NCBI GenBank assembly: GCA_963851265.1 | Contig: CAWKNZ010000001.1 | Location: 1 to 64,000, forward strand | Length of the DNA: 64,000 nt | Direction of reading: 5' to 3' | Source of the DNA: an uncultured Gemmatimonadales bacterium | GTDB lineage: Bacteria > Gemmatimonadota > Gemmatimonadetes > Gemmatimonadales > Gemmatimonadaceae | Shown here: piece after piece, positions 16,925-63,370 of the stretch | Layout of the letters: every line of letters begins with the position of its first letter | Position numbering within the stretch: the stretch's first letter is position 1 | Position numbers and translations under genes: made by a program | The notes under the pieces: generated by a model | What the model saw: the letters and a program-made list of their open reading frames with translations, nothing else | What the model was told of the DNA's origin: nothing | Database searches by the model: none

Positions 16925-17812
16925 GTGACATGGCAGGCGTTACAGCCGAGGGCGGCGCGTGGCGCACGGCGTGCATTTCCGGCCCGGGTGTACGTCACCT
17001 ACGTCGGCCACGCGACGCTGCTGCTGGAGCTCGGCGGCGCGACGCTGCTCACCGACCCGAACTTCGACGACGCGTTAGGCCCACTCGCCGTCGGCCGGCG
17101 GCTGCGGCGCGTGGCCGCACCCGGCGTCGCGCTCGGGGACCTGCCGCGGCTGGACGCGGTCCTGGTGACGCACGCGCACGTCGACCACCTGTCGCTCGCG
17201 TCGCTGCGCGCGATCGACGCGCGCGCGGACGCGCGGGGCGCGCCGCGGCCGCCGGTGCTCGCGCCGCCGACGGTCGCGCGCTGGCTGCGCGCCGAGGGGT
17301 TCGCGACGGCCGAGTCGCTCGCGCCCGGCGAGGTGCGGCGCGTGGGCGAGGTCGCGGTGCACACGGCGGCCGCGGCGCACGTGGGGGCGCGGTGGGGCGC
17401 GGTGGACCGGGTGCGCGGGCGCATCGAGGCGCAGCACTACCTGCTGGACGCGGGCGCGGGCGGCACGGCGTTCTTCGCGAGCGACACGGGCCTCGCGCCC
17501 GGCACGCACCGCCTCGCCCGCGAGGCGCTCGGCCGTCGCGCGCTCGACCTGGCGCTGCTGCCCATCGGGTACACGCCGGCGTGGAAGCGGGCGCGGTTCC
17601 GCGCGGGGCACCTCACCGCGGCCGACGCGCTGGAGCTGTTCACCCGGCTCGGGGCGCGGTGGATGGTGCCGCACCACTGGGGCACCTTCAACCACGTGAC
17701 GTCGGACGCGTACGGGGCGGTCGAGGAGCTGCGCGGGCTGGTGCCGGCGCATGCGTTAGGCGGGAGGGTGCGGGTGGTGGGGGTGGGGGAGCGGTTCGAG
17801 GTGCCGCGGTGA
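16925..17812 (+). CDS. Metallo-beta-lactamase-fold hydrolase (start uncertain)
   Basis: TYVGHATLLL, LTDPNF, THAHVDHL, FASDTG, LPIG, PHHWGTF. Confidence 0.9.
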   Translation: MTWQALQPRAARGARRAFPARVYVTYVGHATLLLELGGATLLTDPNFDDALGPLAVGRRLRRVAAPGVALGDLPRLDAVLVTHAHVDHLSLASLRAIDARADARGAPRPPVLAPPTVARWLRAEGFATAESLAPGEVRRVGEVAVHTAAAAHVGARWGAVDRVRGRIEAQHYLLDAGAGGTAFFASDTGLAPGTHRLAREALGRRALDLALLPIGYTPAWKRARFRAGHLTAADALELFTRLGARWMVPHHWGTFNHVTSDAYGAVEELRGLVPAHALGGRVRVVGVGERFEVPR

Positions 17813-17887
17813 GCTCGGGGGGCGCGGGGCGGCGGGGTCGCGCGTGTCGTCGGCCGGCCCCCGCCCTACGGCCCCAACCCGAGGTCT

Positions 17888-19843
17888 CTACCGATACCCC
17901 ACCGCCTGCAGCCCGAACAGCTCGGCGTACTCTCCTCCCGCCTCGAGCAGCGCGTCGTGCGACCCCTCCTCCACCACCCCGCCGCCGCCTAACACCACGA
18001 TCCGGTCGGCCATCCGCACCGTCGAGAAGCGGTGCGAGATGAGCACGGCCGTGCGCCCCGCCACCAGCTCGGCGAAGCGCTCGAACACCTCGAACTCGGC
18101 GCGCGCGTCGAGCGCCGCGGTGGGCTCGTCGAGCACGAGCACCTGGGCGTCGCGCAGGTAGGCGCGGGCGAGGGCGACCTTTTGCCACTCGCCGCCCGAG
18201 AGGTCCACGCCGCCGTCGAAGCGGCGGCCTAACATCTGGCGGTAGCCGGCCGGCAGCTTGGGCAGCAGCGTCGCGGCGAGCGAGCGCTCGGCGGCGTCGC
18301 GGATCGGGGCCGGCGTGTCGCCGCCCGGGGCGGCCGCGTCGAGCACCGCCACCTCGCCCACGCCGACGTTCTCGTCGAAGGCGAAGTCGTAGCGCACGAA
18401 GTCCTGGAAGATCACGCCCACGGTCGCGCGCAGCGACGCGAGGTCGTAGTCGCGCAGGTCGACGCCGTCGAGCAGGATGCGCCCCTCGGTGGGTTCGTAG
18501 AGGCGCGCGAGGAGCTTGGTGAGCGTGGTCTTCCCCGCCCCGTTCTCGCCGACGAGGGCGACGCGCTCGCCCGCGCGGATCGCGAGGTCGACGTGGCGCA
18601 CCGCCCAGCGCTCGCTGCCCGGGTAGCGGAAGCCGACGTCCTCGAAGCGGAAGCCCTCGCGGATGGGCGTCGGCACGGGCAGCGCGCCGGGCCGCGAGGC
18701 GATCGTCGGCTGCATCGCGAAGAACTCGAACAGGTCGCCGAGGTAGAGCGCCTGCTCGGCGACGTCGCTCGCGGAGCCGAGCAGGCGGCCGAGCAGGTCG
18801 CGCCCGCGGGCGAAGGCGCCGGCGAGGAAGGTGAGCGTGCCTAACGAGATCACGCCCGCCGCGGCGCGCACGAGGATGAGGACGTACGCGGCGTAGTAGC
18901 CGGCGGTGCTCAGCAGCCCCAGCGCGCCGCCCACCCCCGCGCGCCGCGCGGCGAGGCTCGCGTTCTCCGCGTCGAAGCGGTCGGCGAGGACGCGATACCG
19001 CCCGACCAGCCACGGCGCGAGCCCGAAGCTCTGCACCTCCTTCGCCGTCTTGTCGCTCGCGCCGACGTAGCGCAGGTAGTCGAGCTGCCGCCGTTCGGGG
19101 GTCCAGCGGAAGAGGAGCGAGTAGCCGAGCCCCGCGAAGTGCGTCTCGCCGACGAACGACGGGAGGATGGCCGCGACGAGGAGCAGCAGCAGCCGCCAGT
19201 CGAACGCGGCCATCGTCGCGACCAGGGAGGCGAGCGTCAGCGAGTCCTGCGCCATGCCCAGCAGTTGCGTGAAGAGGCCGATGCGTCCGGTCGTCTGCCG
19301 GCGGGCGCGCTCGAGCTTGTCGTAGAACGCCGGGTCCTCGAACTGCGCGAGGTCGAGCGTCGCGGCGTGCTCCATGAGGCGTATGCTCGTGCGGTTGCTG
19401 AAGCGGTCGCCGAGCAGCGATTCGAGCAGCGACGACGCGCGGCCGAGCAGGTCGCCGGCGACGACGAGGGCGACCTCGAGCGCGAGCAGGTGCCAGAGCC
19501 GCGTGAGGGCCGCGGCGTGCGCGGCCGCCGTCGGCGCCGCGGCCGCGCCGGCGGTCCGCGTGGCGGCGACCACGGCGTCGATGATGAGCTTCCCGACCCA
19601 GAGGGTGAGCACCGGGAAGGCGGCCCGCACGACCCGCAGCACCGCGACGCCTGCGGCGTAGCCGCGGTGCGTGCCCCAGACGAGGCGGAGGAGCGCTGGG
19701 ACGTGGCGGAGCGCGCGGAAGCGCTCGCGCCAGGTCGGCGTGGGTGCGTCGTCGGGGCGCGCCGGGCGGCCCGGGGTGACGGGGCCGTTCACCGGGCCGT
19801 TGATACGATTGCTGTGTCGGCCGTTGGCGCGAGTGGGAGGCAT
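17888..19843 (-). CDS. ABC transporter, fused permease and ATPase
   Basis: TM domain, Walker A GENGAGKT, signature LSGGEWQK, VLDEPT, ISHR. Confidence 0.95.
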   Translation of the reverse strand: MPPTRANGRHSNRINGPVNGPVTPGRPARPDDAPTPTWRERFRALRHVPALLRLVWGTHRGYAAGVAVLRVVRAAFPVLTLWVGKLIIDAVVAATRTAGAAAAPTAAAHAAALTRLWHLLALEVALVVAGDLLGRASSLLESLLGDRFSNRTSIRLMEHAATLDLAQFEDPAFYDKLERARRQTTGRIGLFTQLLGMAQDSLTLASLVATMAAFDWRLLLLLVAAILPSFVGETHFAGLGYSLLFRWTPERRQLDYLRYVGASDKTAKEVQSFGLAPWLVGRYRVLADRFDAENASLAARRAGVGGALGLLSTAGYYAAYVLILVRAAAGVISLGTLTFLAGAFARGRDLLGRLLGSASDVAEQALYLGDLFEFFAMQPTIASRPGALPVPTPIREGFRFEDVGFRYPGSERWAVRHVDLAIRAGERVALVGENGAGKTTLTKLLARLYEPTEGRILLDGVDLRDYDLASLRATVGVIFQDFVRYDFAFDENVGVGEVAVLDAAAPGGDTPAPIRDAAERSLAATLLPKLPAGYRQMLGRRFDGGVDLSGGEWQKVALARAYLRDAQVLVLDEPTAALDARAEFEVFERFAELVAGRTAVLISHRFSTVRMADRIVVLGGGGVVEEGSHDALLEAGGEYAELFGLQAVGYR

Positions 19844-19975
19844 CTCCCGGAACCTACGGAGCCCCGTCGAACGCCGGCATCAGGTGTTCGGGGGAGTGCG
19901 GGCAGGTGCCGCGGGCGGGGCGTACCTGTGGCGCTACATGTCGCGCAGTTGCCGGGCAGCCCGTATACTCGCCGG

Positions 19976-22900
19976 ATGACACCCCGATGGATCTGGCTCG
20001 CCGGTGTGGTGGCAGTCGCGACCGCCGCGCCCGGTCGGGCGCCGGCCGCGCAGGCGGCGTCCGACGTCCCGCCGCGCGCGGTCGTGCGCGAGGCCCTGCG
20101 CGCGGTCGAGGGCGACAGCGTCGCCGCCGCCCGCGCCCGCCTGGAGGCCCGGCTCCGCGCCGCGCCCGGGGACCGCGCCGCGGCGCTCGGACTCGCCTCG
20201 CTCGCGCGGTTCACCTACGACTATCCCGAGGCGGAACGGCGCTACGCCGCGCTGTACGACACCCTCGCCGTCGGCGGGCCCCTGGCCCCGGCCGCGGACG
20301 CGGTGGCGCGCTACGCCCTCCTCGGCGCGGCGTCGAGCCTGTACATGCGCGGCGAGGACGCGCGGAGCGTGCCCCTGTTCATGCGCGTCCGCGCGGCCGC
20401 CCACGCGGCGGGGGACCGTGCGCTCGAAGTGCAGACCCTCGGCCCTCTGGCGATGAAGCGCGGCGCGGCGCGTGGCGTCCCCGCGGGGTTGGCCCTGCTC
20501 GACACCGCGGACCGACTGGTGCCGCCCGGTGATGCCGCCCTCGCCGCGAGCCTGGCGTGGCGCCGCGTCATCTTTCTCGCCTTTCTGTCCGACCGCCGCG
20601 CGTCCACCGAGGGCACGCGCGCCCTCGCTCTCGCCCGCCGGGCCGCCGATCGCCGCGCCGAGGCCCAGGTGTGGCGGGCGCTCGCCGTGTACCACCACCT
20701 GCGGGCGGACGACGATTCCGCCCTCATCGCCTACGCCGCCGCGGAGCCGCTGATGCGCGCGAGCGGTGATCGTGGCGTGCTCGCCGAGACGCTCATCAAG
20801 CACGCCGACATCTATCGCGAGCGGAACGACTACACGCGCGCGCGGGCGCTCGCGACGCAGGCGGTCGCCGAGGCCGAGGCGTCGCACAGCCTGTACGCGC
20901 TCGCCGTGGCGCACGACGTCCTCGGCGGCCTCGAGCGCGTGTTCGGCAACCTGGCCGCGGCGGACGCCCACTACGAGGAGTCCGTGCGCCGGAGCGAGGC
21001 GCTCCGCGACTCGAACACGCTGATCGACGTGCGGGTGTCGCAGGCGAACCTCGCGGTCGAGCGCGGTGACGTCGCGCGCGCGCGGCGGTACGCGCTCGCG
21101 GTGCGTGCGTTCCACCACCGGACGGCCGACGCGCACGACGAGTTCGTGGCGCTGCGTACGCTCGCCGCCGTCGAGCGGCGCGCCGGCAACTACGCGGCGG
21201 CGCTCGCCTGGATCGACACGGCGCGGGCGCTCGCCGACGGGCCCGAGCGCCGCGCGTGGCGGCTGGAACTCGACCGCGACCGCGCGGCCGTCGCGTTCGC
21301 GCGGGGGGACCTGCCGCAGGCGCGGCAGCTCATCACCCGCGTGCTCGCGGTTCCGGACACGAGCGACCGGGTGACGCGTTATCGCATGCGCGAGCAGTTG
21401 GCCGAGGTGGACGCGCGGACGGGCGACCTGGCCGGGGCGGAGCGAGAGCTGACGGCCGCAGGGGCCGAACTGGACGCGTGGCGCGCGACGCTCTCGGATC
21501 GGCAGATGCGCGCGCTCGCCTTCCAGGCCCGCGGCGACATCGTCGGCGAGACGGGGAACAGCGCGCCGGCCGTGCTCGCCGCGCTCGCGGCGCACGGTCG
21601 CGAGGCGGCGGCGTTCGAGCTCGCCGAGCGTCGGCGCGCCCGCACGCTCGCCGACGAGCTGACGCGGACGGCGGCGCTCGCCGAGACGTCGGTCGCGGGC
21701 CGCCGCGCGGCCGGCGGTGCGATGGTCGCGCGCGCGGGATCCGCCCTGCCGGCCGCCGCGGCGCTCGTCGCCGACGGCCGGACCGCGCTGCTCGAGTTCG
21801 TCGCGGGGGACGGCGCGACGCCGACCACGCTGTTCGTCGTCACGCGCGGCACCGGCGCCGGGCCGACGGTGCGCGCCGCTCGGCTCGCGCCGGCCGACTC
21901 GCTCGCGCGGCGCGTCGCGCGGTTCACCGCGCTGCTCGAGGCGGGCGGCGACCCCGGCCCGCTCGCTCGGGCGCTCGGCGACGCGGTGCTCGCGCCCGCG
22001 CTGGCCGGGCTCGATCCGGGCGTCCAGCGGCTCGTCGTCGTCCCGGACGGCCCGCTGCACCTGCTGCCCTTCGACGCGCTCCGCACCGCGGATGGCCGCT
22101 ACGCCGTCGAGCGGTATGCGGTGAGCGTCGCGCCGTCGGCGGTGGTCGTGGCGGCCCTGCGCGGGCGCCCCGCCCCGCCGCCCCGACCGGTTCGGCTACT
22201 CGCCTTCGGCGACCCCGCGTTCGCGCCCGCGGGCGGTGCGCCCGCGGCCGGTGCGCCCGCGGGCCGTGCGCCCGTGGCGGGCGCGGCCGCCGCGCGGGCG
22301 CGCGACGCGGACGATGGGGGCGCGACCTTCCGGTCCGCGTTCGACTCGACCGGCGGCCTGCCCCGGCTCGCCGCGTCGGGCGACGAGGCACGCGATGTGG
22401 CGCGCTACGCCCCCGACGCGGTCGTGCGGGTCGGCGACGAGGCCACGGCCGCCTACCTCAAGCACGCCGCGCTGATGCCGTACGACGTCATCCATTTCGC
22501 GACGCACGCGCTCGTCGACGACCGCTCGATCGCCCGCACCTCGCTCGCCCTCGCCCCGGGTGACGGCGAGAGCGGATTCGTCTCGGCGGGCGACCTCGCC
22601 GCCCTGCACCTCACGGCACGGGTCGTCGTGCTTTCTGCGTGTCGCAGCGCTGGCGGTATTGTGGTGGATGGCGAGGGGGTGCAAGGGCTCACGGCCCCGC
22701 TGCTCGAAGCGGGGGCACAGTCGGTGGTCGCGACGCAGTGGCGCATCCGCGATCGTGGGACCGCGGCGTTCGTCGACCGGTTCTACGACCACCTCGCGCG
22801 CGGGCTGACGGTGGGCGACGCGCTGCGGGCGGCCAAGCGCGACGCGATCGCCCGGGGCGCCCCACCCGCGGAGTGGGCGGCGTTCACCGTCGTCGGCGAC

Positions 22901-23846: not shown

Positions 23847-25085
23847 TCACTGCCGGACGAGCTCCACGCGCCGGTTCGTCTGCCGCCCCTCGGCCGTGGT
23901 GTTGGGCGCGGCCGGCTTGCCCGCGCCCATCCCCGTGGCCGTGAGCCGCGCGCCGTCGGCGTGGTAGGTGCCGACGAGCGCCTGCTTCACGGCGTCGGCG
24001 CGGCGCTGCGACAGCGCCTGGTTCGCGGCGGCGTCGCCCACGTTGTCCGTATGGCCCTCGATGGTCAGCTTCAAATCGGGGTGGTCGGCGAGCATCGCGC
24101 CGATCTCCTTCAGCGTGGGCGAGCTCTCGGGGCGGATCTGGTCGGAGGCGGTGGCGAAGTAGATGCCCTGCGTCGCGACGCGCCCGGCGGCGGCGAGCGC
24201 GTCGTAGAGCGGCCGCCCGCCGGCCATCACGCGGAGGTTGGCGAGCATCACCGCCGAGTTGGTGCCGTCGCCGCCCATGGTCACGTAGAGCTTGTTGGAG
24301 CGTTGCAGGCGCGCGTTGGGCACGTTGGCGACGCGCTTCTCGTTCACGTACGCCTTGGCGTAGTCGCCGTCCACCTGGATCGCCACGTGCACCGGGGTGG
24401 TGAACGTCGAGAAGCCGAGCGAAGTGGTCGCGTCGCGGTCGGAGCCCTTGATCCCCGCCTGCCAGTCGTAGAAGTAGAACCAGTCGGTGTTCTGCGGGTG
24501 CCGCTCGACGCCGTTCTTGGGGTCGGCGCTCAGCTCCACGACGTGCCCGCCCGCCATGTCGAACTCGATCGTGTAGCGCTGCGGCAGGACCTGGCCGAGC
24601 GGGACGCGGAAGTGGGCGTCGTCGCGGGTCGACAGCCAGCGCCTGCCCTGCCACTCGACGAGTTCCGCCGACCCGTCCTTGAACTCCAGCCGGCGCGGGA
24701 AGTTGCCGACCACGTCCTGCGAGAAGTCGTCGGCGAAGAGCGTCTTCTCGCCGGGCTTGAAGTCGTAGTTGGCCCACGCGCCCTCGCCGGGCTTCGCCGC
24801 GGCGGTCGTGCCGTTAGGCGCGGCGGAGTCGCGGACGATCGTCACCGTCTTGCCGGCGGCCGTGGCGGAGTCGGCGCACGCCGCGTCCCCCACCGCGCAC
24901 CGCACCGCGCGGTCGGCCTTCTTCGTGGCCGTCTGGGTCGCGGCGTTGCCCGCGGCGTCGCCCGCCTGCCCGACCGCCCCCTTGGCTTTGTCCTTGACCT
25001 TGTTGAGCCACCCCTGGGCGTGCGCGGGGGCGGCGGCGAGGGCGAGTGTGGCGACGACGGTGACCAGGGCTCTGGGGCGCGACAT
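23847..25085 (-). CDS. OmpA-family peptidoglycan-binding protein
   Basis: Signal peptide, NYDFKPGEKTLFADDF, IYFATASDQI, IEGHTDNVG...NQALSQRRADAV...NRRVEL. Confidence 0.92.
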   Translation of the reverse strand: MSRPRALVTVVATLALAAAPAHAQGWLNKVKDKAKGAVGQAGDAAGNAATQTATKKADRAVRCAVGDAACADSATAAGKTVTIVRDSAAPNGTTAAAKPGEGAWANYDFKPGEKTLFADDFSQDVVGNFPRRLEFKDGSAELVEWQGRRWLSTRDDAHFRVPLGQVLPQRYTIEFDMAGGHVVELSADPKNGVERHPQNTDWFYFYDWQAGIKGSDRDATTSLGFSTFTTPVHVAIQVDGDYAKAYVNEKRVANVPNARLQRSNKLYVTMGGDGTNSAVMLANLRVMAGGRPLYDALAAAGRVATQGIYFATASDQIRPESSPTLKEIGAMLADHPDLKLTIEGHTDNVGDAAANQALSQRRADAVKQALVGTYHADGARLTATGMGAGKPAAPNTTAEGRQTNRRVELVRQ

Positions 25086-37222: not shown

Positions 37223-37990
37223 ATGACGGAGACGAACGACCCCACGCGAGTGCTGGATTGGGCATACGCGGATCGGGCCAACTTCACGGCGCGCTGGAAT
37301 CGCGCCAACGTCCTCAATCTGCTGCGACCTTCGAACGGATTCGAGGAGTACCGGACGATCGGACAACGCGCCGAGTTCTACAACTGGTTCGACCAGATCC
37401 GCGAAGCCCAGGGTCACGAGACCCTCTGGCCCGCGGCCGCCATGATCGTGGCGACTCAGATGCGAAGCCTCGAGGACCCGTTCCGGACGCTCGCGATGAC
37501 GCTGCGCCGGGCCGTCAGCTTGCGGTTCGAGACGAGCGAAGCGCTGATCGCATTTGGCGAGCGCGGTAACAAGATGATTTTCGACGACGTGTTCCCGAAG
37601 TTAGGTGACCTGTACCGCCAGGGGCTTGCAGGAAACCCGCTCAAGGGCGAGGCGGCGGCGAGCTGGGACCGGGCGACGCTGCACCACGAACAGTTCGACG
37701 TCGTGCAGCCCATCTACGTGCAAGCCGTGCACGCGAACCCCGAGTTGAGGGACGAGCTAGAAGACATGGCCGCGGGGCACGACGTGTTCTGGCTCGGCGG
37801 CGTCGCGATCGGATCCAGACTCGACTTCACAGGCGACATTCTGAGCGCGCAAGACAGGTACAACCACGGCATGAACGTCGTCGTCCCGTTCTATAAACAG
37901 TTCAAGGCTGCGCTCGACAGCGGGCGGCGGCGGTCCCAAGTCGCGAAACCGGATCCGGCGGCCGGCGGGATGGTATCGATCCACACGTGA
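37223..37990 (+). CDS. Hypothetical protein resembling a polymorphic-toxin C-terminal domain
   Basis: Clean 255-aa ORF. WNRANVLNL...EYRTIGQRAEFYNWF...GHETLWPAAAMIVA...GNKMIFDDVFPKL...EQFDVVQPIY. Family resemblance is from memory only. Confidence 0.55.
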   Translation: MTETNDPTRVLDWAYADRANFTARWNRANVLNLLRPSNGFEEYRTIGQRAEFYNWFDQIREAQGHETLWPAAAMIVATQMRSLEDPFRTLAMTLRRAVSLRFETSEALIAFGERGNKMIFDDVFPKLGDLYRQGLAGNPLKGEAAASWDRATLHHEQFDVVQPIYVQAVHANPELRDELEDMAAGHDVFWLGGVAIGSRLDFTGDILSAQDRYNHGMNVVVPFYKQFKAALDSGRRRSQVAKPDPAAGGMVSIHT

Positions 37991-40798: not shown

Positions 40799-41361
40799 TA
40801 CGGCGCCCCGCCCGGGTTCGCGGCGCCGTCGACGACGGTGCTCACGGCCCCCTTGGTCGAGAACACCGCCCCCGTGTCGGCGAGCGCGTCGCGCAGCGCG
40901 AGGCCCAGCGCCTTGAACGCCGCCTCGACGACGTGGTGCCGGTCGCGCCCGCGCAGCACGCGCAGGTGCAGCGTGGCGCGCGCGTTGAAGGCGAACGACT
41001 GCATCCAGTGGTCGTAGAGCCGCGCCGGCAGCGGCCCCTCGTACCACGCGCGCCCGCCGAGGTCGATCGAGGCGTGGACGAGCGCGTCGTCCATCGGGAT
41101 CGTGCGGTCGCCGTAGCGCGCCGCGGTCGCGGGGGCGAACGCGCGCAGCGCCTCGCCCATCGCGATGCCCACGTCCTCGATGAGGTGATGCTTGAGGTCG
41201 CCGCGCGCGTGTACCGCGAGGTCGAGCCCCGAATAGCGCGCGAGCGCGACGAGCATGTGGTCGAGGAACGGCTCCGACGTGTCGACGTCGGCCTGGCCGG
41301 TACCGCGGCTGATGGTCACGCGAATCTGCGTCTCGCGCGTCTCGCGAACGACGACGGTCAT
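40798..41361 (-). CDS. hisB: Imidazoleglycerol-phosphate dehydratase
   Basis: [40 protein letters not shown]. Confidence 0.96.
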
Positions 41362-42077
41362 GCGCCTCCGAACTCTTCGGCCACCGCGCGCGCGTCGAGC
41401 GCGCCCGTGTACAACGCCATCCCCACCACCGCGCCCGCCGCCCCACACTCCGCGAGCACGCGAAGATCCTCCACCGACCCCACGCCGCCGGAGGCCAGCA
41501 CCGGCACCGTGGCCACCTCGACCACGTCCTCGATGAGTCGGCGGTCGACGCCCTGCATCTGCCCCTCCTTGTGCACCGCCGTGACGAGGAGTCCGGCCAG
41601 CGGCACGCCCGCCAGCTCCTCGACGAGGTCGGTGACGCGCTTCGTGAGCGTGCGTTCCCACCCGCGCGTCACGACCAGCCGCTCGCGCACGTCGGCCGCG
41701 AGGACGAGCGCGCCGGGAAAGCGGTCCGCCGTCTCGGCGAGCCAGTCCGGGTCCTCGACGCCCCGCGTCCCGACCACCACGGCGGCCGCGCCTAACGCGA
41801 GCACCCGGTCGACGGCGTCGGCGTCGCGCACGCCGCCGCCCACCTGCACCGCGTCGAAGCCGCCGTGCCGGACGAGCTCCTCCACCACGCCCGCGTTGGA
41901 GCCGCGCCCGGTGGCCGCGTCGAGGTCGACCACGTGCAGGCGGTGGAAGCCGAGCCGCGCCCACTCGCGCGCGGCGGCGAGCGGGTCGTCGAGGCGGACG
42001 CGCTCGTCGGCGTACGCGCCGCCGACGAGCTGCACGCACGCGCCCTCGCGCAGGTCGACCGCTGGAAGGACGATCAT
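41358..42077 (-). CDS. hisA: ProFAR isomerase
   Basis: [37 protein letters not shown]. Confidence 0.96.
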
Positions 42078-42706
42078 GGGTGCAGGCTGGTGAGGGACGC
42101 CACCCAGGCGGCCACGAACGCCACCCCCGGCGCGCTCGACTTCTCGGGGTGGAACTGCACGCCGACCGTCCCGCCCGCGCGCACCGCGGCCGGGAACCGG
42201 TCGCCCTCGTGCGCGCTCCACGCCGTCACGCACGCGGCGGGGTCGTCCGGCCGGCAGACGAAGCTGTTCGCGTAGTACGCCGTCTCGAGCCCCGACGCGG
42301 TGACGAGCGCGTCCGGCGCCGCGGCGTCGGCCGGCTCGACCGCGTTCCAGCCGATCTGCGGCACGCGCCGCGCCCGGATGCGCGTCACGCGCCCCGGCAG
42401 CAGCCCGAGGCCGGCGCCCGGCCCCTCGTCGCTGTCGTCGAAGAGGAGCTGCATGCCGAGGCAGATGCCTAACGACGGCAGCCCGCCGGCGAGCGCCGCG
42501 CGCATCGCGTCGCGCCCCGGCGCGAGCCGTTCGGCCGCCGCGGCGAAGGCGCCCACGCCCGGGAGCACGAGCGCGTCGGTGTGCTCGACGGCCGCGGCGG
42601 GGTCGGTCTCGACCCGCACCGTGGCGCCCGCGCGCTCGACCGCCTTGGCGAGCGAGTGCAGGTTGCCCGCGCCGTAGTCGAAGAGGGTGATCGTGGGCGG
42701 CGTCAT
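42074..42706 (-). CDS. hisH: IGP synthase glutaminase subunit
   Basis: DYGAGNLHS, LPGVGAF, GICLGMQ, VPQIGWN, QFHPEKS. Confidence 0.96.
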   Translation of the reverse strand: MTPPTITLFDYGAGNLHSLAKAVERAGATVRVETDPAAAVEHTDALVLPGVGAFAAAAERLAPGRDAMRAALAGGLPSLGICLGMQLLFDDSDEGPGAGLGLLPGRVTRIRARRVPQIGWNAVEPADAAAPDALVTASGLETAYYANSFVCRPDDPAACVTAWSAHEGDRFPAAVRAGGTVGVQFHPEKSSAPGVAFVAAWVASLTSLHP

Positions 42707-43842: not shown

Positions 43843-45379
<1,537 letters not shown>

Positions 45380-45383: not shown

Positions 45384-46267
45384 GGCATCAACCGTTCGAT
45401 GCGCGTCACGAGGATGCCCTCGGCGCCTAACGACTTCAGCTGCGCGATGGTGCGGTAGATCGTCGACGCGGCGGCCACGGCGTGCACGGCCACGTGCGCG
45501 CCGCCGTCGAGGATGTCGATCACGGTGGGGCCGTTGAGGCCGGGGAGCACGCGCTTGACCTCGTCGAGCGCGGCGCGCGGCACGTTGGCCATCACGTAGC
45601 GCTTGTCGCGCGCGCGGAGCACCGAGGCGAGCGCGGTGACGAGTTCTTCCATGGCGTGCTGCTTGGGCGAGGGCGCCGCGCCCGCGGCGGCGAGGGCGCC
45701 CGGCGCGGCGACGAGGCGCGCGCTGGACTCGAGCACCGTGGCCACCTCCCGCAGCCCGTTCATCTTGAGCGTCGACCCGGTGGAGGTGAGGTCGACGATC
45801 ACGTCGGCGATGCCGAGGTGCGGGGCGACCTCGACCGCGCCCGACATCGGCACTACGTCGAAGGCGCGGCCGGCCTCGGCGAAGTGGCGCGCGGTGAGGC
45901 GCGGAAAGACCGTGGCGACGCGCACCGGCGGCGCGGCGCCGGCGTCGCGGTGCCAGTCGTCGTGGCGGCCGTCGTCCTTGACCGCGACGACGATGCGGCA
46001 GCGGCCGAAGCCGAGGTCGAGGAGGGCGTCGAGGGTGCGGCCGCTCTCGCAGACGAGGTCCCAGCCCGTCACGCCCGCGTCGGCCGCGCCGTCGGCGACG
46101 AACTCGGGGATGTCGGCCGCGCGGACGAAGATGGCCTCGAACTCGCCGCCTAACGACGCGGTGAGGGCGCGGTCGCCGCGCACGCGCGCGGGCAGCCCGG
46201 CGTCGGCGAACAGTTCGCGCGCGTCGTCGGCGAGGCGGCCTTTGTTGGGGAGGGCGATGCGGAGCAT
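45380..46267 (-). CDS. hisG: ATP phosphoribosyltransferase, long form
   Basis: LRIALPNKGRL, VRAADIP, LGFGRC, SGAVEVAP, DLTSTGSTL, plus the C-terminal regulatory domain. Confidence 0.97.
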
Positions 46268-50346: not shown

Positions 50347-50354
50347 CGTCGCGC

Positions 50355-52457
<2,103 letters not shown>

Positions 52458-53872: not shown

Positions 53873-54096
53873 CGGTCCGGGGGTGCGGGGGCGGTGCGCC
53901 TAACGTGCTGCGGCCGGCGCGCGGTGCGCCCGACCACGGCCGCAAGGCCCGTTCCCCGCCGGACCCCGCGCCGGCCGGCGCACCGGGCGCGCCACGCCCC
54001 CGTGGCCCGTCGTATGCCCCGCCCTCCGGTCCGCCTCGCGACGCGCGCCCGCGTCCGCGGCCGTCCGCGTGCGCCTCCCTGTACGCCCCTCCCGTC

Positions 54097-55876: not shown

Positions 55877-55878
55877 CG

Positions 55879-58245
55879 GTGCCGCCCAACGACATCCGCC
55901 TCACGCCCCGCGCGCACGACGCGGCCGTCGACGCGCCCGCCGGCGCGGCCGTCGGCGCGCCCGCGGACCGCGTCGACGGCCGCGACAAGGTGACCGGCGC
56001 CGCGCGCTACTCCGCCGAGTTCCCGTTCGACGGCCTGCTCTACGGCGTGACCGTGGAGAGCAAGATCGCGCGGGGCCGGCTGGCCGCGGTGGACGCGTCG
56101 GCGGCGGAGCGCGCGCCGGGCGTGGTGCGCGTGTTCACCCACGAGAACGCGCGCACGATGCACCGCACCGAGCCCGACCCGTCGGAGCAGCGCTACAAGC
56201 GCCCGGTGCCGGCGCTGCAGGACGACGGCGTCCCGTTCAACGGCGCGTACGTCGCGCTCGTCGTCGCGCGCACGTTCGAGGAGGCGCGGCACGCGGCTGA
56301 CCTCGTCGCGGTCCGCTACGAAGCGGAGGCGCCGCACCTCGACTTCCGCGGCTCGCTCGGCGAGGCCAAGACGCCCGAGTCGATGCTCGGCGAGCCCCCG
56401 AAGCCCGACACGTCCAAAGGGCACTTCGCGTCGGCGTTCGAGGCGGCGCCGGTCAGGGTCGACGCGAACTACGAGACGCCCTACGAGCACAACAACCCGA
56501 TCGAGCCGCACGCGACCATCGCCGTGTGGAGCGACGACGAGCGCCTCACGCTCTACGACGCGACGCAGAGCGCGGACAACGCGCGCACCGCCGTGGCCCA
56601 AACGTTCGGGCTGCAGGAGGAGCAGGTGCGCGTCGTCTGCAAGTTCATCGGCGGCGGGTTCGGGTCGAAGGGCCAGACGTGGGGGCACGCCACGCTCGCC
56701 GCGATGGCGGCGATGGAGCTGAAGCGGCCGGTCAAGGTGGTCGTCGGGCGGCGCGAGATGTTCATGACCACGGGGCACCGCCCGGGCACGATCCAGCGTG
56801 TGCGGCTGGGCGCCGAGCCCGACGGCCGCCTCACGGCCATCGCGCACGACAGCTTCCTGCAGAACTCCGCGATCGACGAGTACTGCGAGGCGGTGGGCTC
56901 GACGACGCGCGTGATGTACGCCGCGGACCACCGCCAGACGACGCACCGCGTGGTGCCGCTCGACCTGCCCACGCCCAACATCATGCGCGCGCCGGGCGAG
57001 GCGCCGGGGAGCTTCGCGCTCGAGAGCGCGATGGACGAGCTGGCCGTCGCGTTAGGCATGGACCCGATCGCGCTGCGCGTCCGCAACGAGCCCGAGACCG
57101 ACCCCGAGAGCGGGCACCCGTTCTCGAGCCGGTCGCTCGTCGTGTGCCTGCGCGAGGGCGCCGAGCGCTTCGGGTGGGCGCGGCGCGACCCGCGGCCGCG
57201 GTCGATGCGCGACGGGCGAACGCTCGTCGGCTACGGCGTGGCCGCGTCCACCTACCCCGCGCGCACGCAGCCCTCCGAGGCCACGGTCACCGTGGACGCC
57301 GGCGGGCGCGCGCACGTGCGCACGGCGGCCACCGACATCGGCACGGGGACGTGGACGGTGCTGGCGCAGGTCGCGGCCGACGCGCTGGGCTTCCCGCTCG
57401 ACCGGGTGACGATCGAGATCGGCGACTCCGACCTGCCGAAGAGCGCGGGCTCCGGCGGCTCGCGCGCGGCGTCGAGCAACGGGTCGGCGGTGCACGACGC
57501 GTGCACCGCGATGCGCGCGCAGCTCGCCGCGCTGGCGCGGCACGACGCGCGCTCCCCGCTGCACCACGAGCCGCTGGACCGCATCCGGTTCCGCGGCGGG
57601 CGCGTGGAACACGCCGACGATCCGGCACGCGGTGAGCCGGCGGCCGCGCTGTTCGCGCGCAACGCCGGCGCCTTTCCGCTCCAGGCGCACGGCGCGCTCG
57701 GGCGGCGGCTGTCGTCGCGCACGCACGCCATGCACGCCTTCGGCGCGCAGTTCGCGGAGGTGGCCGTGGACGAGGACACCGGCGTGGTGCGACTCCGGCG
57801 CATGCTCGGCGTGTTCGCCTGCGGGCGCATCCTCAACGCCAAGACGGCGCGCTCGCAGCTGTTGGGCGCGATGGTGATGGGCGCGGGGATGGCGCTCATG
57901 GAGGAGTCGTACGTCGACGCGCGGTTCGGGCACTTCGTGAACCACGACCTCGCGGACTACCACGTGCCCGTGCAACTCGACATCGCGGCGATCGACGCGG
58001 CGTTCCTGCCTGAGCACGACGACAAGGTGAACCCGCTGGGGACCAAGGGCGTCGGCGAGATCGGCATCGTCGGGCCGGCCGCGGCGATCGCGAACGCGGT
58101 GTACCACGCGACCGGCGTGCGCGTGCGCGACCTGCCGATCACGATGGACAAGGTGCTCACGGGCATGGGAGTCGCCGCGCCCGGGACGGCAGGCGCGCCG
58201 GGGCTGTACGCGTCGACCGCGGATGGGCTTCACTCACGAGACTGA
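55879..58245 (+). CDS. paoC: Aldehyde oxidoreductase molybdopterin subunit, copy 1
   Basis: KVTGAARY, HNNPIEPHA, GGGFGSK, MRAPGE, DIGTG, KGVGEIGIVG. Confidence 0.92.
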   Translation: MPPNDIRLTPRAHDAAVDAPAGAAVGAPADRVDGRDKVTGAARYSAEFPFDGLLYGVTVESKIARGRLAAVDASAAERAPGVVRVFTHENARTMHRTEPDPSEQRYKRPVPALQDDGVPFNGAYVALVVARTFEEARHAADLVAVRYEAEAPHLDFRGSLGEAKTPESMLGEPPKPDTSKGHFASAFEAAPVRVDANYETPYEHNNPIEPHATIAVWSDDERLTLYDATQSADNARTAVAQTFGLQEEQVRVVCKFIGGGFGSKGQTWGHATLAAMAAMELKRPVKVVVGRREMFMTTGHRPGTIQRVRLGAEPDGRLTAIAHDSFLQNSAIDEYCEAVGSTTRVMYAADHRQTTHRVVPLDLPTPNIMRAPGEAPGSFALESAMDELAVALGMDPIALRVRNEPETDPESGHPFSSRSLVVCLREGAERFGWARRDPRPRSMRDGRTLVGYGVAASTYPARTQPSEATVTVDAGGRAHVRTAATDIGTGTWTVLAQVAADALGFPLDRVTIEIGDSDLPKSAGSGGSRAASSNGSAVHDACTAMRAQLAALARHDARSPLHHEPLDRIRFRGGRVEHADDPARGEPAAALFARNAGAFPLQAHGALGRRLSSRTHAMHAFGAQFAEVAVDEDTGVVRLRRMLGVFACGRILNAKTARSQLLGAMVMGAGMALMEESYVDARFGHFVNHDLADYHVPVQLDIAAIDAAFLPEHDDKVNPLGTKGVGEIGIVGPAAAIANAVYHATGVRVRDLPITMDKVLTGMGVAAPGTAGAPGLYASTADGLHSRD

Positions 58246-58856: not shown

Positions 58857-58884
58857 GGCTCCCCATTTTGTTCTGCGAGTGGCC

Positions 58885-60150
58885 ATGAACATCCCTGCAC
58901 CGTCCGTCGGCGGCGGTCGTCCGATCGGCGTCGGCGAGCCCGCCCCCGACTTTGCGCTCGCCGACGCGGCGGGGCACGCGCGCCGGCTGTCCGACCTGCG
59001 CGGGTCGCCGGTGGTGCTCGCGTTCCCCGCGCGCGCGGCCGAACCGTGGGACCCCGCGCGGGCCGAGTACGTCGACGCCTACAACCGGCTCGTCGCGCGG
59101 ATGCCGGGGGGCGCCGGGGCCCGACTGCTGCGGGTGGGCGGCGGGGGCGACGCGTGGCGCGAGCTGACGTTCGCCGGCGATGGGGACGGCGGCGCGAGCG
59201 CGGTGTCGATCCCCGTCGTCGCGCAGGACGACGCCGCGGTCGCGGCGGCGTACGGCGTCGCCGGCGGCGCGGCGGTGTTCGTGCTCGACGAGGCGGGCAC
59301 GGTGCGCTGGCGCTCGGGCGACCCGGCGGCCGACGCGTTGGGCGGCACGCTGCCGCACCCCGACGAGGTGGCCGCGGCCCTCGCCGCACTCGCGCCGAAG
59401 GAGGACGCGGCGGCGGGCGCGGCGGAGACCGCAGATCGCGAGTCGGCCGGATGGAGCCGGCGCGCGTTCGTCGCGACGCTGTTCGGCGCGAGCGTCGCGC
59501 TCGTGCTGGTGCCGGGTCGGGCGCGGGCGGCGGCGCCGGGTGCGGCGCGCGATGCCGCCGCGGACCGCGCGATGGACCGTGCCGTCGGCACCGCGATGCC
59601 GGTCACGCTGCACGTGAACGGGCGCGACCTCGCGCTGCAGCTGGAGCCGCGCGTGACGCTGCTCGACGCGCTCCGCGAGTACGCCGGCCTCACGGGTACC
59701 AAGAAGGGGTGCGGGCACGGCCAGTGCGGCGCGTGCACCGTCCACGTCGAGGGGCGGCGCGTGCTCTCGTGCATGTCGCTCGCGGTGATGCAGCAGGGCA
59801 AGGCGATCACGACGATCGAGGGGCTCGCGCCGGTGGCGCTCGCCGAGGCCGCCGCGCCCAAGCCCGAGGCGGGGCAGAGTCCGGGCGTGCTGCACCCCAT
59901 GCAGCAGGCCTTCCTGACGCACGACGGCTACCAGTGCGGCTACTGCACGTCGGGGCAGATCATGTCGGCGGTCGCGGTCCTGCGCGAGCCCTGGGGACCG
60001 GGCGACGACGACGTGCGCGAGGCGATGAGCGGCAACATCTGTCGGTGCGGGGCGTACCCGGGCATCGTCGCCGCCATTCAGGAGGTGCGCGGGCACACGG
60101 CGATGCGCACGAGTTCGAACGCGAGCCCGATGCAGCCCTTCGACGCATGA
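58885..60150 (+). CDS. Fusion of an AhpC/TSA-like domain, an internal Tat motif and a PaoA-type 2Fe-2S subunit (copy 2)
   Basis: VGEPAPDFAL...LSDLRGSPVVLAF...AVFVLDEAGTVRW, then WSRRAFVATL, then GCGHGQCGACT and CGYC...CRC. Confidence 0.85.
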   Translation: MNIPAPSVGGGRPIGVGEPAPDFALADAAGHARRLSDLRGSPVVLAFPARAAEPWDPARAEYVDAYNRLVARMPGGAGARLLRVGGGGDAWRELTFAGDGDGGASAVSIPVVAQDDAAVAAAYGVAGGAAVFVLDEAGTVRWRSGDPAADALGGTLPHPDEVAAALAALAPKEDAAAGAAETADRESAGWSRRAFVATLFGASVALVLVPGRARAAAPGAARDAAADRAMDRAVGTAMPVTLHVNGRDLALQLEPRVTLLDALREYAGLTGTKKGCGHGQCGACTVHVEGRRVLSCMSLAVMQQGKAITTIEGLAPVALAEAAAPKPEAGQSPGVLHPMQQAFLTHDGYQCGYCTSGQIMSAVAVLREPWGPGDDDVREAMSGNICRCGAYPGIVAAIQEVRGHTAMRTSSNASPMQPFDA

Positions 60151-61142
60151 ACAACTTCGACTACGTGGTCGCCGCCGACCTGGACGCCGCCACCCGCGCG
60201 GGCGCGGTGCAGGGCACGCGCTTCATCGCCGGCGGCACCAACCTCGTCGACCTGATGCAGCTCGGCGTCGAGGCGCCGGCGCACGTGGTCGACGTGAACG
60301 CCCTCGCGGCGCGCGACCCGTCGCTCGCGGCGATCACGATCCTGCCCGACGGCGGCATGCGCCTCGGCGCGCTCGCCCGGATGAGCGACACGGGATGGGA
60401 CGCGCGCGTGCGCGAGCGCTACCCCGCGGTGAGCGAGGCACTGCTGCTGGCCGCGTCGGGGCAGATCCGCAACATGGCGACGTTGGGCGGCAACGTGCTG
60501 CAGCGCACGCGCTGCCCGTACTTCCGCGACACGGGCACGCCATGCAACAAGCGCGAGCCCGGCTCCGGCTGCCCGTCGATTCCGGGGCACAACCGCGAGA
60601 ACGCCGTGCTCGGCACGAGCAAGCACTGCATCGCGACGTACGCCTCGGACTTCGCCATCGCCCTGGCGGCGTTCGACGCGACCGTGCACGTGCGGACGCC
60701 CGAGGGCACCGACCGCACGATCGCCTTCACCGAGTTCCACCTCACGCCCGGTGACCACCCCGAGCGCGAGCACGTGTTGCGGCCGGGCGAGTTGATCACC
60801 GCGTACGACCTGCCGCCCCTCACCGCCGCGCGGCGTTCGACGTACCGCAAGGTGCGCGACCGCGCGAGCTACGCCTACGCGCTCGTGTCGACCGCGGTCG
60901 CGCTCGACGTGCAGGGCGGCACCGTCCGCGACGCGCGCATCGCCCTGGGCGGGCTGGCCACCAAACCCTGGCGTGCGCGCGACGCGGAGCGGGCACTGGT
61001 GGGCCGCCCCGCGACCGAGGCGAGCTACCGCGCCGCGGCCGAGGTGGCGCTCAAGGGCGCGGTGCCCCAGAGCGAAAACGCGTTCAAGATCGAGCTGGCC
61101 AAGCGCACCATCGTGCGCGCGCTGACGGAGGTGTCGGCATGA
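60147..61142 (+). CDS. paoB: Aldehyde oxidoreductase FAD subunit, copy 2
   Basis: IAGGTNLVDLM, ASGQIRNMAT, QRTRCPYF...CNKREPGSGC, KVRDRASY. Confidence 0.92.
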   Translation: MNNFDYVVAADLDAATRAGAVQGTRFIAGGTNLVDLMQLGVEAPAHVVDVNALAARDPSLAAITILPDGGMRLGALARMSDTGWDARVRERYPAVSEALLLAASGQIRNMATLGGNVLQRTRCPYFRDTGTPCNKREPGSGCPSIPGHNRENAVLGTSKHCIATYASDFAIALAAFDATVHVRTPEGTDRTIAFTEFHLTPGDHPEREHVLRPGELITAYDLPPLTAARRSTYRKVRDRASYAYALVSTAVALDVQGGTVRDARIALGGLATKPWRARDAERALVGRPATEASYRAAAEVALKGAVPQSENAFKIELAKRTIVRALTEVSA

Positions 61143-63370
61143 AGAAGGGAGCCCCGGAGGGGCCGAGCATCGGCGCACCGATCGACCGCGTCGACGGCCA
61201 CCTCAAGGTCACGGGCGGCGCACGCTACTCGGCCGAGATGCCCGTCGAACACGTCGCGTACGCGGTGATGGTGACCAGCACCATCGCGCGCGGCCGCGTG
61301 CGGAGCGCGGATACCGCCGCGGCCGAGCGCGCCCAGGGCGTGCTCGCCGTCTACACGCCGGCCAACGCGCCCAAGCTGCCCACGTCGGACAAGGCACTGC
61401 TCAAGCCGCCCGAGGGACGCAAGCTCACGACGCTGCAGGACGACCGGGTCTACTACAACGGGCAGCCGGTCGGGCTCGTCGTGGCCGACACGCTCGAGCA
61501 CGCGATGGCCGCGGCCGAGCTCGTGCGCTTCACGTACGACGCCGAGCGCCCGGAGCTGGACATGGCGACCGCGCCGCGCGGCCAGACGAACAACGGCCGG
61601 CCGGGCGGCAACGAGCCACCATCGTCCAACCGCGGCGACGTCGACGCGGGGCTCGCGGCCGCGGCCGTGCGCCTCGACCACACGTACACGACGCCCATCG
61701 AGCAGCACAACCCGATGGAGCTGCACGCGACGCTGTCGGTGTGGAACGGCGACCACCTCACGCTCTACGACGCGACGCAGGGCATCTTCGGCGTGCGCAA
61801 CACGGTCGCCAAGGCGTTCCAACTGCCGCCCGAGAACGTGCGCGTGGTGTCGTACTTCGTCGGCGGCGGCTTCGGTTCCAAGGGCTCGGCGTGGTCGCAC
61901 GTGCTGCTCTCGGCGCTCGCCGCCAAACAGCTCGACCGGCCGGTGAAGCTGGTCGTCTCGCGGAAGCAGATGTTCGGCCCCGTGGGCGCGCGGCCGCGCA
62001 CCGTACAGCGCGTCCAGCTGGGCGCGATGCGTGACGGACAGCTGACGGCGCTGCGGCACGTGAGCACGTCCAACACGTCGATGCTCGAGGACTGGCTCGA
62101 GCCCTCGGCGGTGTCGACGCGCATCCTGTACGCGGTGCCCAACTGCCAGACCGACCACGTGCTGGCCCGCCTCAACGTGGGGACGCCCACGTTCATGCGC
62201 GCGCCCGGCGAGGCGAGCGGCACGTTCGCCGTCGAGAGCGCGATGGACGAGCTGTCGTACGCGCTGCAGATGGACCCGGTCGCGCTCCGGCTCCGCAACT
62301 ACGCCGAGCAGGACCCCGAGAGCCACAAGCCGTGGTCGAGCAAGTCGCTGCGGCAGTGTTACCACGAGGGGATGGAGCGCTTCGGCTGGTCGCGGCGCAC
62401 GCCGCAGCCGCGCTCGATGACCGACGGACGGTGGCTCGTCGGCTACGGCATGGCCACGGCCACGTACCCGGCGCGGCGCGGCAAGGCACAGGCGCTCGCG
62501 CGCATCTTCCCCGACGGGCGCGGCTGGGTGCTGGCCGGCTCGCAGGACATCGGCACCGGCACGTACACGGTGATGACGCAGATCGCCGCCGACGGGCTGG
62601 GCCTCCCGCCCGAGCGCGTGCGCTTCGAACTCGGCGACACCACCATGCCCGAGAACCCCGGGTCGGGCGGCTCGCGCACGGCGGCGTCCACCGGGTCGGC
62701 GGTGCAGGCGGCGGCGCAGGGCGCGCGACGCGCGGCGGTCCGCATGGCGATCAACGACGCGGCGTCGCCGCTGCACGCCGCCAGGGAGGACGACGTGCGC
62801 GTGACCGACGGGCGCATGCACCTCGCCTCCAACCCGAGCGTGGGCGAGACGTACGCCCAGCTCATCGCCCGCAACGGCAACCAGCCGATCGAGGCGCTCG
62901 AGACCGCACAGCCGGGCGACGAGACCAAGCAGTACTCGATGCACTCGTTCGGCGCGGTGTTCACCGAGGTGCGCGTCGACCGCGACCTCGGCGAGATCCG
63001 CATCCCGCGCGTGGTGGGCGTGTACGGCGTGGGCAACCGCCTGAACGCGAAGACGGCGCAGAGCCAGCTCATCGGCGGCATCGTCTTCGGCATCGGGATG
63101 GCGCTCATGGAGGAGGTGCACGTCGACCCGCACTCGGGTCGCTACGTGAACTCCGACCTCGCCAACTACCACGTGCCGGTGAACGCCGACGTGCACGCGA
63201 TCGACGTGCACTTCGTCGACGAACAGGACCCATACGTGAACCCGTTAGGCATCAAGGGGATCGGCGAGATCGGCATCACCGGGCTGTCGGCGGCGATCGC
63301 CAACGCCGTGTACCACGCCACGGGCAGGCGGATCCGCGACCTGCCGCTGACGCCCGACAAGCTGATCTAG
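61139..63370 (+). CDS. paoC: Aldehyde oxidoreductase molybdopterin subunit, copy 2
   Basis: KVTGGARY, HNPMELHA, GGGFGSK, MRAPGE, KGIGEIGITG. Confidence 0.92.
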   Translation: MKKGAPEGPSIGAPIDRVDGHLKVTGGARYSAEMPVEHVAYAVMVTSTIARGRVRSADTAAAERAQGVLAVYTPANAPKLPTSDKALLKPPEGRKLTTLQDDRVYYNGQPVGLVVADTLEHAMAAAELVRFTYDAERPELDMATAPRGQTNNGRPGGNEPPSSNRGDVDAGLAAAAVRLDHTYTTPIEQHNPMELHATLSVWNGDHLTLYDATQGIFGVRNTVAKAFQLPPENVRVVSYFVGGGFGSKGSAWSHVLLSALAAKQLDRPVKLVVSRKQMFGPVGARPRTVQRVQLGAMRDGQLTALRHVSTSNTSMLEDWLEPSAVSTRILYAVPNCQTDHVLARLNVGTPTFMRAPGEASGTFAVESAMDELSYALQMDPVALRLRNYAEQDPESHKPWSSKSLRQCYHEGMERFGWSRRTPQPRSMTDGRWLVGYGMATATYPARRGKAQALARIFPDGRGWVLAGSQDIGTGTYTVMTQIAADGLGLPPERVRFELGDTTMPENPGSGGSRTAASTGSAVQAAAQGARRAAVRMAINDAASPLHAAREDDVRVTDGRMHLASNPSVGETYAQLIARNGNQPIEALETAQPGDETKQYSMHSFGAVFTEVRVDRDLGEIRIPRVVGVYGVGNRLNAKTAQSQLIGGIVFGIGMALMEEVHVDPHSGRYVNSDLANYHVPVNADVHAIDVHFVDEQDPYVNPLGIKGIGEIGITGLSAAIANAVYHATGRRIRDLPLTPDKLI

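Follow-up and report, generated by a model that had tools for sequence, protein, structure and literature searches.

The first 64,000 nucleotides of contig C1 (CAWKNZ010000001.1) in the genome of an uncultured Gemmatimonadales bacterium (GCA_963851265.1), hereafter the window, contain dnaN and dnaA, a his operon, an ABC transporter gene, a PAS histidine kinase gene and two paoC-like genes, and a short word, GTTAGGC, is scattered through the stretch. A sequence-only reading of the window had proposed that the octamer YGTTAGGC is written into genes through the rare TTA codon and is a candidate genome-wide DNA signal. All 16 positions listed by that reading hold the octamer, 13 of them in frame as NYG-TTA-GGC (x-Leu-Gly), and the three exceptional copies are as it described them: antisense to Pro-Asn (24813), overlapping a TAG stop codon (50353) and intergenic (53898). 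By match count, 1.57 copies were expected and none of 100 shuffles reached 16. The base in front of these copies is C in 14 cases and T in 2; a 17th heptamer, at 2108, follows a G. It is the sole heptamer of a contig-end region of reduced GC (1-9000), where pieces of IS-type transposases occur (rve domain at 5453-5896) together with genes that scored poorly under the codon model. The TTA codon at 37601, the only one outside the word that the reading had noticed in the host part, is present; its gene (37223-37990) is of reduced GC, has no Pfam match and carries the variant GTTAGGT. The gene calls give four further in-frame TTA codons outside the word, at 5458, 9261, 25999 and 40699. In the paoC-like paralogues copy 1 does have CTG GGG where copy 2 has TTA GGC, although the differing positions say little about independent gains or losses because the paralogues are only 51% identical.

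Table 1 Copies of GTTAGGC in the 64-kb window
Copy and reading	Positions	Strand	Gene or context
GTTAGGC with G in front	2108..2114	+	outside gene calls; 17th heptamer, additional to the 16 listed before
CGTTAGGC = Ala-Leu-Gly (GCG TTA GGC)	17073..17080	+	metallo-beta-lactamase-fold gene 16988-17812
CGTTAGGC = Ala-Leu-Gly	17754..17761	+	metallo-beta-lactamase-fold gene 16988-17812
TGTTAGGC = Val-Leu-Gly	17987..17994	-	ABC transporter gene 17888-19792
TGTTAGGC = Met-Leu-Gly	18227..18234	-	ABC transporter gene 17888-19792
CGTTAGGC = Ser-Leu-Gly	18839..18846	-	ABC transporter gene 17888-19792
CGTTAGGC antisense (GCG CCT AAC, Ala-Pro-Asn)	24812..24819	+	OmpA-domain gene 23847-25085 (Pfam)
CGTTAGGC = Ala-Leu-Gly	41790..41797	-	his operon gene 41358-42077 (hisA by inspection)
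CGTTAGGC = Ser-Leu-Gly	42467..42474	-	gene 42074-42706 (hisH by inspection)
CGTTAGGC = Pro-Leu-Gly	44856..44863	-	hisD
CGTTAGGC = Ser-Leu-Gly	45425..45432	-	hisG
CGTTAGGC = Ser-Leu-Gly	46148..46155	-	hisG
CGTTAGGC over stop codon (CGT TAG GC)	50353..50360	-	PAS histidine kinase gene 50355-52457
CGTTAGGC = Ala-Leu-Gly	52191..52198	-	PAS histidine kinase gene 50355-52457
CGTTAGGC intergenic	53898..53905	-	
CGTTAGGC = Ala-Leu-Gly	57050..57057	+	molybdopterin-binding subunit gene 55879-58245 (paoC-like copy 1)
CGTTAGGC = Pro-Leu-Gly	63243..63250	+	paoC-like copy 2 (61139-63370)

The source genome (G000) is a draft of 4.6 Mb and 73% GC. It contains 1,762 copies of GTTAGGC where an order-2 Markov model predicts 96, an 18-fold excess that is thus not confined to the window, and the heptamer and words overlapping it are the top words at lengths 6 to 9. 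Genome-wide the word is preceded by C in 79% and by T in 14% of cases, with no other flanking consensus. The word is thus better taken as a heptamer whose preceding base follows a graded preference (C > T > A/G) than as a strict octamer. One-mismatch variants of the heptamer were not clearly enriched save GTTGGGC (2.5-fold against codon shuffles). Genes were called with a codon model of our own (3,805 calls, of which 3,617 scored above the level used, with somewhat inexact gene ends) and each was subjected to ten synonymous shuffles. The x-Leu-Gly frame holds 991 copies versus 36 in the shuffles, the antisense Pro-Asn frame 198 versus 18, and the two remaining usable codon frames 69 versus 9.5 and 23 versus 1.1, the antisense frames being 7- to 11-fold enriched. 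Spacers contain 276 copies versus 26 expected (10-fold), and at least 113 of the 419 TAA stop codons read GCC TAA C. As all usable frames, stops and spacers are enriched, the constraint lies on the DNA. Most copies are on the sense strand, and 991 of the 1,269 TTA codons with scored context (78%) read G-TTA-GGC, so TTA is not found mostly elsewhere. A repeat or mobile element was rejected as the source of the copies, given the lack of a flanking consensus and the near absence of duplicated contexts. Note that the same genome strongly avoids poly-G and poly-C runs, CCTGG-containing words and CTAG.

Conservation was assessed using 448 and 413 orthologues from two congeners (fourfold-site identity about 0.65, about 0.45 Mb of aligned coding DNA each). 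TTA codons within the word were retained at 75 of 116 and 87 of 119 orthologous Leu codons, whereas TTG was retained at 54 of 527 and 67 of 509 and CTA at 6 of 99 and 8 of 88. There is turnover as well: relative to the congener G001, 81 sites are shared and 70 and 143 are unshared, and sites align to codon variants of the orthologue without indels. Genes that both congeners also possess carry 66 sites in 203 kb and genes without either orthologue carry 1 in 15 kb, whereas genes of cassette arrays carry 1 internal site in 15 kb versus 4.8 expected (small numbers in both cases). All five genomes of the genus are rich in the octamer (887-3,045 copies), and G012 has 7,189 and tolerates GTTAGGT too. 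Phylum-wide, more than 500 octamers were found in 9 of 251 genomes, these being G000, 5 of 53 from its family and 3 of 113 from a second family, where all three belong to a single genus, and in 0 of 81 genomes outside the order; the denominators include G011, G085, G124 and G203, all of which are low. G040, from a third family, has 625 octamers, a part of which may be cassette arrays. On a quick tree of 26 orthologues of a methyltransferase described below, the rich genomes require five changes, three of them forced by strong branches, and thus a single origin without losses seems unlikely. The earlier proposal of a DNA-level signal of this lineage, as opposed to codon-based control, is borne out by the antisense, stop and spacer enrichment, by conservation in congeners and by this restricted distribution. 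The closest matches to HisD (the best 18) are 56-70% identical and mostly from Gemmatimonadaceae/Gemmatimonadales; amid Gemmatimonadota matches stands a Polyangiaceae-titled record with a HisD 60% identical, which may be a transfer or a binning error.

The sites are spaced. In G000 only 79 pairs of sites lie less than 300 bp apart versus 202 expected, and for in-frame sites the counts are 15 versus 69 below 300 bp and 0 versus 23 below 100 bp. Eight control words lacked such a deficit, which was found again in G001, G004 and G012, but not clearly in G240, where pairs are few. The sites are not polar. Strand counts flip at dif (C2:1,368,947), yet they track gene orientation: on C2, a single contig of a draft assembly to which the test was restricted, 222 of 1,784 opportunities are filled in leading-strand genes and 133 of 1,018 in lagging-strand genes. 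Within 250 kb of dif, lagging-strand genes fill 6 of 96 opportunities versus 86 of 638. Chi and KOPS, which had been offered as analogues, failed this polarity test once gene orientation was considered. The XerD arm of dif at C2:1,368,947 was considered as a possible instance of the word and rejected, as its sequence is different. A second dif-like sequence lies at C2:1302954, 66 kb from dif, and the assembly has no GC skew that marks replichores.

The sites are also surrounded by a halo of raised GC. At fourfold positions A/T makes up 3.5% when a site is 10-50 bp away, climbs to 5.4% by 300-400 bp and reaches 8.6% at distances above 5 kb. Within genes the halo residual amounts to 11 standard errors and is equal on both sides; it persists when 210 bp are trimmed off the gene ends, whereas six control words have little or no such profile around them and the flanks of other rare codons are A/T-richer. 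The halo is seen in fourfold A and in fourfold T, at twofold sites, in TTG versus CTG, Ile versus Val and Thr versus Ala, and in spacer DNA, and is absent from G versus C and from CTC versus CTG. Neither dependence on neighbouring bases nor 5'/3' asymmetry of the halo was found. A fit with gene effects places A/T at 0.56 of normal at the site with a decay of about 250 bp, and where no site is near, A/T is by itself only slightly patchy (autocorrelation no higher than 0.004). Within-gene odds ratios (intervals in parentheses) were 0.66 (0.61-0.70) in G000, 0.59 in G001, 0.53 in G004 and 0.73 (0.59-0.91) in G240. The window by itself, with only 9 genes, is too small for the halo to be visible.

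The halo depends on which lineage holds the site at present. In a branch-stratified test of those 128 genes, out of 300 three-way genes, in which a site occurs, the ratio of silent changes from G or C (S) to A or T (W) in the site-holding lineage to those in lineages without a site at the same position was 0.51 (0.45-0.60), and around lineage-unique sites it was 0.57 (0.44-0.70). Positions where only another genome has the site behaved as far positions (0.99). The S-to-S value was 1.03, and because it is unchanged the halo is unlikely to reflect mutation being lowered across the board; it is compatible with GC-biased conversion as well as with G:T-specific repair. At codon positions 1 and 2, G:C-to-A:T transitions stood at 0.76 and the other five classes at 0.78-1.00. 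Silent transversions are apparently also about halved, although this is blurred by saturation. An earlier W-to-S figure (83% versus 64%) was found to be inflated by genes lacking sites. A lower rate of amino-acid change near sites was not counted, as it shrank to 0.93 (0.82-1.07) around lineage-unique sites. We conclude that GTTAGGC is a real, selected and lineage-restricted DNA signal of the iterated-motif kind, with a compositional footprint centred on the motif.

GTTRRRY is the core site of the integron recombination sites attC and attI (PMC8876359), and the sequence-only reading had remarked that the heptamer fits it. The match is in fact exact: GTTAGGC is the commonest core in the attC arms of this order, letter for letter, including the C or T in front. 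In 22 of 31 attC (three loci in two kin genomes) both arms read GTTAGGC, mostly with a C-led copy on one arm and a T-led copy on the other, and motif-poor kin have the octamer as inverted pairs in cassette arrays. The agreement is probably not due to chance. The presence of an integrase, however, does not explain the dispersed copies. IntI passes the cut-off in 25 of 41 relatives, many of them motif-poor, and intI is broken or missing in G000, G001, G008 and G012. G000 has a handful of true attC on C6 (hairpin at C6:1592) and C10, and a long hairpin is the predicted fold of one of them; its attC-oriented pairs within 160 bp number 12 among 1,762 sites, which is below chance. Its intI is split by a large serine recombinase element (G000:C6:3005-6044), which may be excisable since an 11-bp direct repeat stands at both junctions; an attC and small cassette-like genes come next. 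A cassette array with at least 7 attC-like sites occupies G000:C10:188900-215000, on a contig without a full intI match.

Proteins that might read the word were sought in motif-high and motif-low genomes. ComEC was found in 47 of 49 genomes, high and low alike, and neither IntI (41 genomes) nor the IntI SAM domain or UDG (49 genomes each) separated the two groups. A single PilW-like pilin query matched 38 of 49 genomes, both high and low. DprA is present in 5 of 5 genomes, high and low alike, and G000 has three minor-pilin operons; competence machinery (ComEC, DprA and pilin operons) is therefore present, in motif-poor kin too. NucS was found in 0 of 5 genomes and a DUF559/Vsr-like protein in none of the 3 high genomes tested; DUF559, looked for in 5 genomes, did not separate high from low either. 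A motif scan of the gene calls gave one large N6 (adenine) methyltransferase resembling Eco57I/type IIG enzymes (G000:C7:582086-585511), which an SNF2-type helicase adjoins (the pair spans G000:C7:579717-585511). The methyltransferase occurs in 76 of 80 Gemmatimonadota genomes and is mostly single-copy, which is unusual for a restriction-type gene. Its catalytic and C-terminal blocks are conserved in motif-rich and motif-poor groups, and no alignment column convincingly separated high from low. This order-wide orphan methyltransferase and its helicase neighbour are candidate readers that may or may not touch GTTAGGC. The complement GCCTAAC has what we take to be the asymmetric, penultimate-A form of MmeI-family sites. 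In the literature searched, mostly without subscription journals and with supplements not covered, GTTAGGC as a whole word turned up in one unrelated paper, none of the papers listed contained GTTAGGC, GCCTAAC or CCTAAC in connection with methylation, a motif or integrons, no Gemmatimonadota methylome was among the matches listed, and we found no description of a gemmatimonad uptake sequence.

The largest motif gap in G000 (C1:182,877-227,963) measures 45 kb, more than any of 2,000 simulated maxima, and contains parA, parB and three parS-like palindromes. When 8 genomes are pooled, the 40 kb around parS on either side carry the motif at only 0.51-0.76 of its mean density. After correction for gene GC at third codon positions (GC3), however, the gap holds 1 site versus 6.4 expected, which is unremarkable for the extreme of a few hundred windows, and G012 and G240 have sites within 1 kb of parS. 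Exclusion of the word from parS regions was therefore rejected: the gap in G000 is real, but correction for GC3 leaves little of it and the genomes with the densest sites have none, and it supports a minor rival only. The parS-like palindromes near parB in G000 (C1:186278, 192711 and 195717), G001 and G004 are of a variant form, TGTGGCACGTGCCACA, that is found in this genus, whereas other genera have the usual TGTTTCACGTGAAACA near parB. In G000 some 185 kb separate parAB from dnaA. A probable secondary replicon is marked by Rep-like, ParB-like and ParA genes at G000:C8:254382-260526; these sit in a 21-kb motif gap, and the rest of C8 has chromosome-like motif density.

Two genomes with known kinds of iterated word served as controls, each represented by part of a single genome with dense sites, in which a weak or overlapping halo could escape. 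For DNA uptake sequences (DUS) we used 140 kb of a genome with 1,437 copies of what we take to be the Neisseria-type 12-mer (family inferred), and for HIP1 278 kb of a Nodosilinea genome. In the DUS control, inverted pairs at terminator distance were 4.7-fold up and pairs at 50-500 bp were at 0.34-0.88 of expectation. The 278 kb of the HIP1 control gave no halo (1.05, 0.93-1.18) and no clear spacing.

We give about an even chance to the explanation that molecular drive acts on the word as a tag for recombination or uptake, and that conversion in short tracts around it is GC-biased. In such a scheme (C)GTTAGGC would be read on the DNA by a putative factor, and word-bearing DNA would be preferentially taken up or integrated by homologous recombination in short tracts centred on the word. 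This preference would drive the word into any position that the protein code tolerates. A second copy within one tract length would bring no extra advantage, hence the spacing, and flanks would undergo repeated heteroduplex repair favouring G and C, hence the halo. A tag is favoured because one process would cover enrichment, DUS-like spacing, depletion in accessory genes, symmetry, the lack of a context effect and the slight W-to-S rise. Several results weigh against it. That rise (1.11-1.23 in the branch-stratified test) is borderline and near saturation, and it is absent from the fourfold same-gene subset, where W was kept at 8 of 35 near and 19 of 94 far positions. At codon positions 1 and 2 only G:C-to-A:T transitions clearly fall, which suits lesion-specific repair equally, and AGG versus CGG, a pure transversion pair, has no halo. 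No significant halo was obtained for G012 (0.91), whose sites follow one another at about 700 bp, for G211 and G173 pooled (0.94, 21 genes) or for G165, G121 and G193 pooled (0.75, 14 genes). The DUS control had none (odds ratio 1.11, 0.9-1.4; 45 genes in 140 kb), and terminator-type inverted pairs, which are typical of DUS, are nearly absent here, with 6 short pairs among 1,762 sites. DUS-proximal DNA in Neisseria has been described as slightly more divergent (PMC2397512), whereas site-proximal DNA here is not. The word is shorter than known uptake sequences, and no tested family separates motif-high from motif-low genomes.

The main rival, in our view less probable, is that the word is a loading or marking site for a repair activity with a reach of about 300 bp, by which G:T and G:U mismatches are returned to G:C. 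Every such site would lower the local G:C-to-A:T load and be selected for a small linked benefit, a second site in range would add nothing, and the orphan methyltransferase and helicase could mark or read the word. Spacing and halo share one length scale, and the conserved and mostly single-copy methyltransferase suits it. Repair also fits the transition bias (transitions carry most of the effect and S-to-S is unchanged) and the missing terminator pairs better than a tag does, and the DUS control lacks a halo. However, the methyltransferase is equally conserved in motif-poor genomes with no convincing separating column, the searches for NucS and for a DUF559/Vsr-like protein were negative, the effect lacks the sequence-context dependence of methyl-cytosine patch repair, W-to-S leans upward and silent transversions appear halved, subject to the saturation mentioned. 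Less probable still is a binding site for a chromosome-organising protein under which a few hundred bases are covered or wrapped; the flanks would be weakly selected for high GC, and the word would be disfavoured where ParB spreads. Non-polar, spaced and conserved sites, the parAB/parS gap and the lower pooled density near parS speak for it. Against this, the gap is weak after GC3 correction, G012 and G240 keep sites near parS, selection on flank GC should hit transversions too and yet AGG/CGG is flat, and density among relatives ranges from background to 1.4 per kb.

What probability remains is shared by integrase by-products, polar signals and others. The copies might be scars left by cassettes that inserted elsewhere than at att sites, or places where such cassettes land, given that the word is the core of both arms in most local attC, that G000 has attC hairpins and that attG sites in the genome can serve the integrase as targets for cassettes (10.1101/2022.09.11.507474). 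These attG sites are very unlike classical att sites according to the same work. The copies here sit at synonymous positions of intact genes, with neither flanking consensus nor indels relative to orthologues. With IntI also in many motif-poor relatives and broken or missing in four genomes as noted, and none of 201 genomes from the phylum of a Thauera locus enriched, this reading is very unlikely and, as far as scars are concerned, largely refuted. A polar signal such as Chi or KOPS is suggested by the asymmetric 7-8-mer form at Chi-like density, the raw flip of strand counts at dif on C2 and the lagging-strand dip near dif; but gene orientation explains the flip, leading- and lagging-strand genes on C2 are filled in similar proportion, the halo is symmetric and the XerD arm of dif differs, leaving it very small probability. 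Translational control through rare TTA, as by bldA in Streptomyces, or an RNA-level signal would account for the share of TTA codons in the word and for the sense-strand majority, but the antisense, spacer and TAA-stop copies refute it and we practically discount it.

If the word is a recombination or uptake tag, its specificity may have come from integron cassettes. Some Gemmatimonadales could have evolved an uptake or integration factor for the cassette core, a cassette-capture signal, and so have driven the word into chromosomes more than once. The copies would then act as hot spots of GC-biased conversion, much as PRDM9 sites do, but in a bacterium and with a motif that spreads instead of eroding. 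We regard this fuller scenario as speculative and rather unlikely. Whether GC richness in bacteria results from GC-biased gene conversion (gBGC) or from selection has been debated mainly from gene-level correlations. Here 7-base marks have been mapped by the thousand; around every one of them, over some 300 bp, G:C-to-A:T change drops to half, and this zone appears and disappears together with its mark. Mutation-accumulation, uptake and population data therefore have distinct predictions at known coordinates. Either outcome would be new: a cassette-linked uptake or recombination tag in a phylum for which the literature searched describes none, or a cis-site that lowers local mutation load. The word could also offer a practical route to transform a poorly tractable soil phylum.

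By the features tested, the word is not a member of the DUS, HIP1, attC or Chi classes, although it shares traits with each. Like Chi and KOPS it is an asymmetric 7-8-mer at roughly one copy per few kb, but once gene orientation is allowed for, it is not polar with respect to replichores or dif. From attC it differs in that the dispersed copies are single and unpaired, lack inner boxes and a hairpin, lie inside intact genes and are independent of integrase presence. The DUS of Neisseriaceae are read by ComP. ComN/PpdA is the predicted reader of the uptake signal sequences (USS) of Pasteurellaceae (PMC12616744). As with DUS and USS, of which there are thousands, the copies are dispersed, non-palindromic and non-polar, lie in genes, are conserved yet turning over and are rarer in accessory genes, and competence genes are present; close pairs are under-represented, as in the DUS control. 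Unlike DUS and USS, the word has only 7-8 bases, is nearly without terminator pairs, lacks enriched one-mismatch variants save GTTGGGC (about 2.5-fold), is identical to the attC core and is patchy over three families, and it has a GC halo that the DUS control lacks. HIP1 (GCGATCGC) is described as 15- to 300-fold over-represented and as kept in every frame and in spacers even where codon preference opposes it (PMC5861425), and has been tied to transformation and orphan methyltransferases (10.1101/2024.09.10.611283, PMC13756078). The analogy with HIP1 drawn by the sequence-only reading holds for over-representation and conservation across frames and spacers; HIP1 differs in being a palindrome with known methylases and, in its one control genome, showed neither short-range spacing nor halo. 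It has been argued that gBGC operates in bacteria (PMC4450053), with gene-level correlation rather than a motif-centred peak as the evidence, and the one paper found that joins gBGC with an uptake sequence reports, in its accessible text, no motif-centred GC peak. The halo around GTTAGGC has its closest likeness in PRDM9 and gBGC, where a short motif also has GC raised equally on its two sides, in whichever lineage holds the motif. The PRDM9 sites of mammals are recombination hot spots whose motifs are eroded by their own activity, whereas GTTAGGC is driven up.

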